This document shows positions 1-16,848 of a stretch of 64,000 nt of DNA, piece by piece. The notes below the pieces were generated by a model. That model made no database searches. It was not told the origin of the DNA and saw nothing but the letters and a program-made list of their open reading frames with translations. The translations under genes and the position numbers were made by a program. Source of the stretch: an uncultured bacterium (lineage in GTDB: Bacteria; Oederibacteriota; PGYV01; CAWJRG01); NCBI GenBank assembly GCA_963845185.1, contig CAWJRG010000010.1, positions 832,001 to 896,000 of the forward strand, in the 5' to 3' direction. Positions within the stretch are counted from its first letter, which is position 1; each line of letters starts with the position of its first letter.

Positions 1-1203
1 GGGGAGTTAAAACAGGACAAAGCCCCGGGCATTGACGGAGTAAGGATAGAGGAATATGAAGTCAACAAAGAGGCAAATATCAAGGATTTAATCAATAGGA
101 TGAAGGCGTGGAGATACATACCGCAACCAACAAGGCGCGTCTACATCCCCAAGACAAACGGAGACAAGAGGCCGCTGGGAATACCTGCCGTCGAGGATAA
201 GATAATCCAGATGGGGGTAAAGAAAATTCTTGAGTCAATCTTTGAGGTAGACTTCAGCGAAGTATCTTACGGGTTCAGGCCTGACAGAAATTGTCATCAG
301 GCATTGAAAATTCTGGATAAGGAAGTAATGACAAAGCCAGTCAACGCAGTAGTGGATATGGACATTGAGAAGTTTTTCGATACCATAAACCACAAATGGC
401 TAATGAAATGCCTTACGCAAAGGATTGCCGATACAAACCTGATAAGGTTAATCGGCAGGATATTAAATGCAGGGATTATGGAAGAAGGTAAGTTTATCGA
501 AACGGATAAAGGGACGCCGCAGGGCGGAATACTAAGCCCATTACTGGCGAACATCTACCTACACTACATATTAGACCTGTGGTTCGAAAGGCATGTCAAG
601 AGACAGCTCAAAGGATACGCCAGTCTGATACGTTATGCCGATGACTTTGTTGTGCTGTTCCAATATGACAGCGAAGCAAAGGAGTTTGGCGAAATGTTAA
701 GACAGAGGCTTGATAAGTTTGGCCTCAAAATCGCCAAAGATAAATCGAGAATAATCGTATTCGGGCGCCACGCCTGGTATAAGTCCAAAGATACAGGCGG
801 GAAAATTCCGACCTTTGATTTCCTCGGGTTTACTCATTACTGCGACAAAACCAGAAAGGGCGGCTTCAAATTAGGCCGAAGGACGGCAAGTACAAAATTC
901 AAACAGAAGATGAAGGCGACGAACTTCTGGCTAAAGAGCGTAAGAAATCTTGTGGAATTAAAACAGTGGTGGCAGGCATTAGGAAGAAAGTTAACGGGCC
1001 ACTACAATTATTACGGGATAAGCGGTAATATGCCCCAAATAACAAAATTCTACTGGAGAAATCGTGCGCTCGCCTATAAATGGATAAACAGGCGAAGCCA
1101 GAAAAGAAGTTACAACTGGGAACAGTTTTGCCGCTTTCTAAGATACAACCCATTGCCGGAACCCAGGATATATCATTTAACCTATTCGCTGTCATCGTAT
1201 TAG
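1..1203 (+). CDS. ltrA: Group II intron reverse transcriptase/maturase, 5'-truncated by the window edge, no endonuclease domain
   Basis: Frame is open from base 1 (GELKQDKAPGIDG, RT0). Motifs RPLGIP, SYGFRP, GTPQGGILSPLLANIYL, RYADD and FDFLGFTH are present; domain X ends PLPEPRIYH. Confidence 0.97.
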   Translation, partial: GELKQDKAPGIDGVRIEEYEVNKEANIKDLINRMKAWRYIPQPTRRVYIPKTNGDKRPLGIPAVEDKIIQMGVKKILESIFEVDFSEVSYGFRPDRNCHQALKILDKEVMTKPVNAVVDMDIEKFFDTINHKWLMKCLTQRIADTNLIRLIGRILNAGIMEEGKFIETDKGTPQGGILSPLLANIYLHYILDLWFERHVKRQLKGYASLIRYADDFVVLFQYDSEAKEFGEMLRQRLDKFGLKIAKDKSRIIVFGRHAWYKSKDTGGKIPTFDFLGFTHYCDKTRKGGFKLGRRTASTKFKQKMKATNFWLKSVRNLVELKQWWQALGRKLTGHYNYYGISGNMPQITKFYWRNRALAYKWINRRSQKRSYNWEQFCRFLRYNPLPEPRIYHLTYSLSSY

Positions 1204-1217
1204 GAAGTATTCCCGTG

Positions 1218-1300
1218 GAGCCGAATGACCGAAACGGTCACGTTCGGTTCTGAGAGGGGCATTAAGTAACCAAAGGAGGTTATAAAAGATGTCTACTCAC
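1218..1300 (+). ncRNA. Group II intron ribozyme domains V and VI
   Basis: DV at 1218-1250 (GAGCCGAA/TTCGGTTC, AGC triad, CG bulge). In DVI, GAG 1254-56 pairs with CTC 1296-98 and GGGCAT 1257-62 pairs with ATGTCT 1289-94, leaving A1295 bulged. Confidence 0.88.
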
Positions 1301-1963
1301 AAAAAATATTTTTTTGCATTATTTTTGATTACGGGTCTATTTAGTAATGTATTTACAACGCAATGCCCCGGTTATAAAAATATTTGTTGGGGTTCTTCAG
1401 AAAAAGTAGTTAGAACTGCTTTAAATGCTAAATTTAGAGAACCATTAAACAGTTCTAGTGTTTATGATGGGGGGTGCCTATTTTTAAGTTATGAAGATTT
1501 TGATGGTGTTATTTTCAAAATGCTTGATATAGATACGAGCGAACCTTATTCATTCGATCCATATGTAGTAAATACACTTGACATATACGTACCAAATAGT
1601 TCATTTAAAAGATATAATGTAAAAGAAAACGATTTGGTTGTTTTCTTTAAGGGTAGATTTTTTTGTTATGAAACTTATGTGGGTGAATATGAAACTGTTG
1701 AAGAAGCCTTAATAAAAAAATACGGGCAAGAGATTAAGCCTTGGAAGGATTTTGAGGAAAAAAAGTATTATAATGTATCTGTAAGAATAATTGATGGAAC
1801 AAGAATTCTTAATATTAATGGAATTGTTTTTTATTTTGATGATAAGGTACTCAATGAAATTAAACAGATTGTTGATAAAAAATTGATGAAACAAAAGAAA
1901 CAACAAAATGAAAAAGACAAACAAAATAATTTAGAGGAAAAAAATAAATTAGATAATTTATAA
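1289..1963 (+). CDS. Hypothetical exported protein, AT-rich
   Basis: 224-aa ORF with SD AAAGGAGG at 1272-79 and a signal-peptide-like N-terminus (KKYFFALFLITGLF). Confidence 0.75.
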   Translation: MSTHKKYFFALFLITGLFSNVFTTQCPGYKNICWGSSEKVVRTALNAKFREPLNSSSVYDGGCLFLSYEDFDGVIFKMLDIDTSEPYSFDPYVVNTLDIYVPNSSFKRYNVKENDLVVFFKGRFFCYETYVGEYETVEEALIKKYGQEIKPWKDFEEKKYYNVSVRIIDGTRILNINGIVFYFDDKVLNEIKQIVDKKLMKQKKQQNEKDKQNNLEEKNKLDNL

Positions 1964-16771: not shown

Positions 16772-16848
16772 TGGTGGGCCCTGTAGGACTTGAACCTACG
16801 GCCAATAGATTATGAGTCTACTGCTCTGACCAACTGAGCTAAGGGCCC
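16772..16848 (-). tRNA. tRNA with CAT anticodon, most likely tRNA-Ile2
   Basis: 77-nt cloverleaf GGGCCCTTAGCTCAG...CTCATAA...GTTCAAGTCC...GGGCCCACCA; promoter TTGACA-16-TATAAT at 16886-16859. Confidence 0.93.

Follow-up and report, generated by a model that had tools for sequence, protein, structure and literature searches.

A group II intron placed behind start codons that carries an in-phase Shine-Dalgarno sequence and AUG in domain VI

What is a mobile intron doing directly behind the start codon of a gene, and why does its own 3' end carry a second set of initiation signals? The question is raised by the window analysed here, a 64,000-nt stretch of DNA from an uncultured bacterium (G000:C10:832001-896000), the start of which falls within the reverse transcriptase (RT) open reading frame (ORF) of a group II intron. 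The original prediction, made from the letters of the window, was that the intron had inserted just after a host start codon and had rebuilt the Shine-Dalgarno (SD) sequence and the start codon within its domain VI, an interpretation that is supported by the comparisons described below. We consider it probable that the element is an active mobile copy, with an RF02005 ribozyme and an endonuclease-less (En-less) RT, of a lineage that homes to the translation initiation region of genes. At the level of sequence and predicted structure, the anatomy of the intron, its position one base after true start codons, the lineage-wide conservation of an in-phase SD and AUG, the pairing of exon-binding site 1 with intron-binding site 1 (EBS1-IBS1) and the gamma-gamma' pair are all demonstrated.

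Comparison of copies and family models confirms that the window element is a copy of a mobile group II intron at the coordinates given in Table 1. Its 5' end, GTGCGCC, is found at C10:831397, 604 nt upstream of window position 1, and ~445 nt separate this end from the RT ORF. The complete intron-encoded RT/maturase is 453 amino acids (aa) long, has a YADD motif visible in its translation and matches NCBIfam model TIGR04416 (group II intron reverse transcriptase/maturase) with 366 bits against a cut-off of 300; a Pfam scan of the protein finds RVT_1 at 1e-40 and no endonuclease (HNH) domain. The 5' part of the ribozyme matches Rfam family RF02005 (group-II-D1D4-6) at L057 1036-1270, with 100.4 bits against a gathering score of 49, and family RF00029 (group II domains V-VI) matches window positions 1216-1302 with 49.1 bits (cut-off 40). 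The element thereby combines a GTGCG 5' end, a domain V starting GAGC, a bulged branch adenosine, an RT, EBS1-IBS1 and gamma-gamma', as group II introns do.

The peculiarity of the intron is its domain VI, for which a branch-point helix taking in the ATG, a bulged A1295 and an apical hairpin holding the SD had been proposed. Both the sequence and RNAfold agree with this to the base: folding of positions 1254-1301 gives exactly the expected helix with A1295 bulged (-15.1 kcal/mol, z = -4.6), and only 1/200 shuffles folds as well. The SD itself, AAAGGAGG, said to stand 9 nt upstream of the ATG at 1289-1291, is borne out by a reading of the sequence; its first part is placed in the apical loop and its final GG in the hairpin stem. 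The final 13 nt of the intron (AUG UCU ACU CAC A) have the same phase as the displaced AUGA, and the translation of ORF 1289-1963 begins MSTHKKYFFALF.

When the structure of domains V and VI is laid over 52 distinct relatives, 98.2% of cells are paired and 13 pairs have changed on both sides, a level of pairing and covariation that is reached by 0/500 shuffles; if the structure is slid by 1-3 columns, pairing drops to 33-50%. All 13 pairs of domain V are 100% paired, with six changed on both sides. In domain VI, pairing amounts to 99.8% in the basal helix and to 90% in the apical hairpin, where 4/5 of the pairs co-vary, and the GGAGG columns remain (nearly) invariant while the stem of that hairpin co-varies. 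Two relatives, L094 and L105, have an altered helix sequence and have lost the AUG there, having instead an ATG one codon upstream and in phase. In introns with an insertion of ~70 nt in domain VI, the SD hairpin stays directly before the ATG. This insertion, which has an internal hairpin with a GAAA loop, is conserved in L005, L006, L014, L017, L023, L034, L090, L106, L121, L133, L134 and L137, and those members of the sub-group that lie at start codons have the SD hairpin and the ATG immediately ahead of the 3' strand.

If the intron sits behind a start codon, the upstream exon should end in an SD and an ATG before the GTGYG of the intron. It ends in ...TTGGAGGCAATTATGA followed by GTGCGCC, that is, in an SD (GGAGG), 5 nt, ATG and one further base. 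The two splice boundaries had been placed at ATG/AAA and, with some latitude, at AC 1300 (a slash marks the junction). The first of these stands in that the insertion is directly behind the host start codon, and the second in that MSTH is followed by the host frame, but the point of insertion is ATGA/AA and the intron ends after A1301. In the window copy the ligated sequence is equal either way, ATGA/GTGCG...CACA/AA and ATG/AGTGCG...CAC/AAA giving identical products. We place the 3' end at A1301 because EBS1 pairs with exon base -1 (CCACUC with GAGUGG in L021, CCAUU with AAUGG in L108), because the distance of the branch adenosine from the 3' end (7th base) then matches that in relatives ending CUCGAC, and because of the gamma-gamma' covariation: the N of the J2/3 motif GGCAGUC(N)GAC is U in 14/14 introns ending in A and G in 54/54 ending in C, with no discordant intron among the 68 distinct introns and the stretch missing in nine further loci. 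This covariation corresponds to the expected gamma-gamma' pair and may reflect few evolutionary events. An end at C1300 (GTGCG...CAC) was rejected, since it breaks the gamma-gamma' rule and leaves none of the host ORFs of the seven genomic copies in frame, these closing after 15-78 codons; with an end at CACA, 7/7 are in frame.

The ligated product is a signal-peptide-like orphan protein of 221 aa (MKKYFFALFLITGLF...). A ribosome starting at the native ATG of the unspliced RNA would read 36 codons into domain I and then meet a stop. The interrupted gene has no Pfam family above cut-off, and 0/30 related genomes contain a homologue of its 3'-exon protein, hence there is no uninterrupted orthologue to compare among them. 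A search for sequencing runs that contain the locus listed none of RNA, and three DNA runs yielded only short contigs, none of which joined the two sides of the intron or showed an allele with an empty site.

Table 1 Coordinates of the intron and of the gene it interrupts (window positions unless a contig is named)
Feature	Position	Strand	Basis
Group II intron, 1905 nt	G000:C10:831397-833301; 3' 1301 nt = window 1..1301	+	copy comparison, boundaries, RF02005, RF00029
RT/maturase, last 400 codons and stop TAG (1201-1203)	1..1203	+	ORF; RVT_1; TIGR04416
Domain V, catalytic hairpin with AGC triad	1218..1250	+	RF00029; fold; covariation
Linker between domains V and VI	1251-1253	+	sequence
Domain VI (basal helix 1254-1262 with 1289-1298; apical hairpin 1266-1283)	1254..1298	+	RNAfold
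Domain VI 5' strand, GAGGGGCAU	1254-1262	+	sequence
Domain VI 3' strand, AUGUCU(A1295)CUC	1289-1298	+	sequence
SD-like AAAGGAGG	1272..1279	+	sequence; GGAGG columns (nearly) invariant in 52 relatives
SD-to-ATG spacer, 9 nt	1280-1288	+	sequence
Intron-borne ATG in domain VI basal helix, 13 nt before 3' splice site	1289..1291	+	sequence
Bulged branch adenosine A1295, 7th base from intron 3' end	1295	+	RF00029; fold; column invariant in 52 relatives
Predicted 3' splice site (last intron base A1301, first exon base A1302)	1301..1302	+	frame logic; gamma-gamma' covariation
3' exon coding sequence, from second base of codon 2 to stop 1961-1963	1302..1963	+	ORF
Reading frame on unspliced RNA, 224 aa (MSTH, K codon split by splice site, exon)	1289..1963	+	ORF

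Is this arrangement peculiar to one locus? A BLAST search of the genome identifies six full-length copies of the intron, 99.5-100% identical, and one 786-nt derivative that lacks the RT ORF. As the original prediction led one to expect, the arrangement is shared: all seven copies are found at GGAGG-N5/6-ATGA/GTGCG...CUCACA/AAA, in seven different genes, with the native start codon present each time, and none of the seven lies elsewhere than at an SD-ATGA site. The ligated exons form ORFs of 66-334 aa whose N-termini read MK(K/I) followed by a hydrophobic stretch, several of them with a lipobox-like cysteine, and Pfam families (MORN_2, FGE-sulfatase and RHS_repeat) are found in 3/6 of the other host proteins. 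The RT ORFs of the full-length copies are intact (453-566 aa) and their domain V-VI sequences identical; the near-identity of the six copies implies that the element has moved recently. The derivative (L063, G000:C1:269109-269894, - strand), which is 89% identical in its 5' part and 96% in its 3' part, occupies the site GGAGGCGTAAATGA of a gene with a 247-aa product matching RHS_repeat. In its domain VI the ATG is replaced by GTG, likewise a start codon, and the triplet remains paired and in frame.

Relatives were fetched by means of the RT, which gave 56 loci in species-representative genomes; of 342 metagenome loci, the best 80 were taken. A total of 111 loci were examined for intron boundaries, comprising 31/56 of the genome loci (the rest being partial or below 48% identity) and 80/80 of the metagenome loci; a single 5' end could be located in 83 of these and a 3' end in 97. 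The junction counts given here cover the lineage with an RT at least 58% identical, with each distinct junction counted once. A start codon followed by one base (ATG or GTG at -4 to -2) is found at 59/67 distinct 5' junctions, the breakdown being ATG and A in 52, ATG and G in five, GTG and G in one, GTG and A in one, and other sequences in eight. At 55/67, the start codon is accompanied by a match to at least 4/5 GGAGG positions 3-12 nt upstream. At the other end of the intron, 66 of 71 distinct 3' junctions have an ATG at -13 and three have one at -16, which is the same phase, leaving two with none. An SD-like pentamer, by the same measure of at least 4/5 GGAGG positions 3-12 nt upstream, is present in 61 of the 66 with ATG at -13, and the spacing between the domain VI SD and ATG is mostly 9 nt, sometimes 5. 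The longest open frame is in phase with the domain VI ATG in 54 of the 62 3' exons of at least 150 nt.

The proteins encoded by these 3' exons indicate where in the gene the intron is located. Among ORFs of at least 95 aa, 19/36 match a Pfam family at E <= 1e-5, and several of the matches begin at the very start of the product: P-II covers residues 1-104 on profile positions 3-102, Response_reg 2-108 on 1-109, 3HCDH_N 3-181 on 1-179, Sulfatase 1-298 on 2-301 and RmlD_sub_bind 1-156 on 2-137. That these matches start at residues 1-3 of the exon product argues that the intron sits at the true N-terminus. The invaded genes, some of which are of housekeeping type, include those for an AIR-synthase-like (PurM-like) protein, P-II, the exonuclease VII small subunit (XseB) and 3-hydroxyacyl-CoA dehydrogenase, and the hosts, as named in the sequence records, are members of the Omnitrophota, Aerophobetes, Aminicenantes, Elusimicrobia, Brocadia, Syntrophaceae, Chloroflexi and Actinomycetota, an ANME-1 archaeon and others.

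How such sites might be chosen is suggested by the exon-binding sequences of the intron. EBS1, 5'-UCAUAA within 'UUUUUCAUAAAAG', pairs with exon UUAUGA, a stretch running from the end of the spacer through the AUG to the first base of codon 2; the UCAU part of EBS1 is common to nearly all members at ATGA sites. At other sites the two partners co-vary, with UAAAGA pairing with UCUUUA in L014, UCCGUG with CACGGA in L034 and UCCAG with CUGGA in L102; covariation extends in all to L021, L108, L014, L023, L028, L034 and L102. A census of the genome found 177 empty GGAGG-N4-7-ATGAAA sites against the seven occupied ones, and the longer sequence GGAGG(C/T)GG is present at 5/7 occupied and 6/177 empty sites. 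A candidate EBS2 loop, 5'-(A)UCGCC, in a stretch that is unpaired in the RF02005 consensus, could pair with GGCGG(U), that is, with the last GG of the SD and the spacer, and such a pairing would explain the excess of GGAGG(C/U)GG at occupied sites. In relatives, 47/68 candidate EBS2-like loops end in CC, and the mean helix that these loops form with the exon of the same intron is a little longer, at 3.94 bp, than in controls with the exons of other introns (3.58 +/- 0.11 bp), none of 500 controls being as high.

The exceptions are informative. Among 62 distinct loci with both junctions, 51 have the exon start codon together with the domain VI SD and ATG, five (L014, L023, L028, L034 and L102) have neither signal, four (L005, L013, L091 and L114) have the domain VI signals only and two the exon start codon only, of which L025 has a weak SD and L076 is, by reading, a parsing artefact caused by two adjacent ATGs. 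In the five that lack both, EBS1 is complementary to the intron's own non-ATG exon, so that these introns are retargeted, not misplaced; relatives retargeted away from start codons are mostly without SD or ATG. Decayed native starts were considered as proof that the domain VI start is used, and were set aside: the exons of L005 and L114 look mutated, EBS1 is retargeted in L091, and the 3' exons are short or cut off. In L013, on the contig of the ANME-1 archaeon, the 5' exon ends ...TTCAAC, the SD-like sequence is GGUGG, the in-phase ATG is at -16 and the frame closes after 10 codons.

As in the window copy, the 5' ribozyme of 15/15 other relatives tested matches RF02005 (98-130 bits). The more distant RF02005 introns, with RT identities of 48-52%, are not all at start codons: L028, L145 and L146 have no ATG at the 5' junction, and L028 is also without a domain VI SD or ATG. 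Among cultured relatives, the best plasmid matches have 49-52% RT identity, and L145 and L146 are not at ATG sites. The start-codon design is accordingly the mark of a sub-lineage, not of all RF02005 introns. In an outgroup of IIC-like introns (RF02001/RF01998), 7/7 have neither SD nor AUG in domain VI, and none has a 5' exon ending in ATG. The genome also contains an eighth RF00029 match (G000:C10:404965-405041, - strand, 43.7 bits), which is IIC-like, with a domain V starting CCGCC, no adjacent RT ORF and no SD or ATG in domain VI. It probably represents the remnant of an intron, or else an intron that has no ORF.

These observations suggest how the element might work. A ribonucleoprotein would reverse-splice into SD-spacer-ATGA/A sites, relying on host priming because its RT has no endonuclease. 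On unspliced RNA, the domain VI AUG would serve ribosomes as the start, and the host protein would begin with MSTH instead of M. In secreted proteins, these three extra residues would be removed along with the signal peptide; splicing would restore the native MKK... frame. Since the host protein would carry a minor extension in the one case and have its native frame in the other, insertion should be nearly harmless either way. The AUG and part of the SD are in the branch-point helix, so a bound ribosome and a folded domain VI should be incompatible; in the folded precursor, the native AUG and the sequence close to the native SD should be hidden by EBS-IBS pairing.

From this we tentatively put forward a broader proposal, which seems to us plausible rather than probable. 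The intron would represent a widespread, unrecognised lineage for which the initiation region is the homing site, a fourth niche for group II introns, with EBS1 reading the AUG and EBS2 the end of the SD and the spacer, and with a portable, in-phase SD and AUG in the branch-point domain. Domain VI would act as a switch, folded for branching and unfolded by ribosomes for translation, so that splicing and translation would be mutually exclusive on each transcript and housekeeping genes could be invaded at little cost.

Several points weigh against reading the locus in this way. Splicing and initiation at the domain VI AUG are both predicted from sequence, and initiation there may be inefficient, as the AUG and two SD bases are held in a structure of -15 kcal/mol. 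An intact native SD and ATG remain in most copies, so that splicing might by itself be enough for expression. It is in part difficult to separate the conservation of the AUG from that of the basal helix, the CAU/AUG pairs being kept in 46-49/52 relatives, and L013 and L091 keep the domain VI SD and ATG though they are not at start codons. The sampled introns are mutually related, so that the counts are not of independent events, and metagenome contigs can be chimeric across a repeated intron. EBS2, finally, is a tentative candidate with weak support.

Might the SD-like stretch and AUG of domain VI be kept for reasons that concern the RNA itself (for example to stabilise the helix, to make a tertiary contact through the purine-rich loop or to mimic the target site) and go unused for translation, with the host gene expressed only from spliced mRNA? 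The AUG does belong to a helix with 99.8% pairing, part of the signals is buried in structure and a native SD and ATG are retained in the 5' exon at 55/67 junctions. Against this, the phase is kept, never being broken where an ATG exists (-13 in 66 and -16 in three of 71 junctions), the stretch from ATG to splice site has no stop codon and the spacing of SD and ATG is that expected for a ribosome. Furthermore, where the helix has changed, in L094 and L105, the ATG has shifted by exactly one codon, the SD hairpin remains beside the ATG despite the ~70-nt insertion, and in 4/5 of the retargeted introns lacking both features, domain VI is still paired although it has no good SD or ATG. We regard an exclusively RNA-level role as unlikely. 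A different possibility concerns the sites and not the signals: insertion could be wide, with no aiming at start codons, and copies could survive only behind these, where the built-in SD and ATG rescue the gene. Selection must indeed contribute, and the host genes (7/7) have signal-peptide-like N-termini that would tolerate an extension. However, nearly all members have an EBS1 complementary to ..AUGA, with covariation in those at other sequences, no genomic copy is found away from a start codon, and the additional upstream match GGAGG(C/T)GG is far more frequent in occupied than in empty sites; survival without aiming thus seems distinctly improbable.

It is also conceivable that the copies are immobile relics, the element having been domesticated as a 5' leader and the host made permanently dependent on the intron-borne start. 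The copy on C1, which has lost the RT ORF yet keeps an SD and GTG in frame with a 247-aa gene, would fit such a history, but the six full-length copies are nearly identical with intact RT ORFs, domain V, the branch adenosine, EBS1 and GUGCG are all intact, and native start codons are still present in 7/7 copies, so that we rate domestication as very improbable. Could the intron instead belong to the specialised IIB1 lineage already known from start and stop codons, the Avi.groEL/EcKTE56.groEL family? A tie to translation signals is common to both, insertion of the groEL introns also re-creating a stop codon (PMC12584367). The window intron lacks, however, the 300-700-nt 5' subterminal insertion of that family, having ~445 nt before its RT ORF, and its ribozyme is RF02005. 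Its En-less RT scores 158 bits to the GsI-IIC RT as opposed to 119 bits to the RT of PDB 6me0, which we take to be of CL1 type. The hosts belong mostly to uncultivated non-proteobacterial phyla and the targets are many unrelated genes, not a single one, and membership of the IIB1 family can be considered extremely improbable. Returning to the reading that we prefer, of a mobile intron aimed at start codons, its interest would extend beyond this locus.

A number of further observations concern the relatives and the surroundings of the intron. L070 and L071 share one 5' exon and have different 3' exons, L080 and L081 share one 3' exon and have different 5' exons, and L082 differs in both; the mixing in these two pairs could arise either by recombination between intron copies or from assembly chimeras across the repeat. 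Two similar NifU-like genes (N-termini EKIEAALKKIRPMLQADGG and EKVEQALEKVRPMLRADGG) carry at their start introns of different sub-lineages, L075 and L119, one of them ending CACA and the other CGAC; either an old insertion has been passed on together with the gene, or a conserved start region has been homed to more than once. In the window, positions 1289-2900 form an island of low G+C content (24-35%, compared with 41-46% in the intron and 50-62% from ~3000 onward). Two orphans lie within it, the interrupted gene and an ORF of 231 aa (1965-2660) without a Pfam family, and the island may have been horizontally acquired. Upstream, at G000:C10 ~829800-831330, a reading of the sequence finds two genes before the interrupted one: the product of the first bears a signal peptide and is rich in repeats that look TPR-like, and that of the other is a small membrane protein ending in a CxxC...CxxC motif. 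Elsewhere in the window, a tRNA gene is found at 16775-16848 (- strand, 76.3 bits), with the anticodon loop CUCAUAA and anticodon CAU.

According to the usual description, bacterial group II introns either avoid genes or need splicing to spare them. If the reading given here is correct, aiming at start codons while bringing along one's own start signals would be a new survival strategy for retroelements, and would explain how such introns sit in the housekeeping genes of many uncultivated phyla. The start-codon design reaches far beyond the window locus, into a broad lineage in uncultivated bacteria, and would link the branch-point domain directly to the ribosome, with splicing and initiation competing on one RNA helix. 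In practical terms, it suggests gene-targeting introns that tag the invaded gene or retain its expression. For annotation it carries a warning, as proteins starting MSTR, MSTQ or MSTH right after an RT gene may be intron-exon fusions.

How does the lineage compare with systems already described? The closest parallel in behaviour is with the IIB1 introns at start and stop codons (Avi.groEL, EcKTE56.groEL), which, in the summary that Gomes et al. 2025 (PMC12584367) give of Michel et al. 2007, have a CL1-type RT, a subdomain Ia of 300-700 nt, proteobacterial hosts and one cognate housekeeping gene each; in the groEL introns insertion converts UAA to UAG, re-creating the stop codon, and the unspliced intron leaves the host frame unharmed. 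The two lineages have in common an insertion beside the initiation codon (here in 7/7 copies and 59/67 junctions) and the re-creation of a translation signal on insertion. They differ in that the window lineage has an En-less RT, an RF02005 ribozyme and a generic SD-spacer-AUG-A target in many unrelated genes, and carries a complete SD and AUG cassette in domain VI. No insertion of the subdomain Ia type is seen in the window intron, and an alignment of 21 5' regions reveals at most an insert of 30-70 nt in some relatives. This insert, in the first domain I hairpin loop (after GGUGA), is found in L012, L014-L017 and L021 and is absent from the window intron.

By sequence, the nearest solved RTs are the GsI-IIC RT and maturases that we take to be of IIC type. 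Group IIC introns insert after terminator hairpins or attC sites with a very short IBS1 and no EBS2, in the parts of PMC12584367 and PMC4424553 that deal with them. With these the window intron shares an En-less RT, a compact ribozyme and a lineage-wide focus on a generic gene-expression signal, but its EBS1-IBS1 helix is 5-7 bp long and covers the AUG, its domain V is of the AGC and not the CCGCC type, and it inserts inside coding sequences. No hairpin and T-run was seen by eye before the 5' junctions in the flanks of the window genome, no dedicated terminator scan having been made. RF02005 introns with En-less RTs may correspond to the class F/unclassified En-less group of Toro and Martinez-Abarca 2013, which in the available text of that study includes an anammox intron, a Kuenenia intron being near class F (PMC3552965); one of the relatives found here, L017, is carried by a Brocadia (anammox) genome.

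A formal resemblance exists with organellar group II introns, in which, according to the available part of PMC3073962, the intron ORF is translated in frame with the upstream exon. In both, an in-frame fusion across a splice site brings intron sequence and translation together, but the direction is reversed: there the start of the 5' exon drives the intron ORF, here the 3' end of the intron gives the 3' exon its start. As to target choice, three specificities (homing sites, terminators and attC sites) are listed in the available text of a 2015 review (PMC4424553), and start codons go unmentioned in the available portions of a 2020 survey of intron neighbourhoods (PMC7306698) and of the 2013 study of En-less classes (PMC3552965). 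Our search of full-text literature, which some key older papers (Michel 2007, Simon 2008) lay outside, found no description of a start-codon-homing En-less lineage or of an SD and AUG in domain VI. Set beside these systems, the lineage apparently represents previously undescribed group II introns that combine a new target niche with a translation cassette in domain VI.

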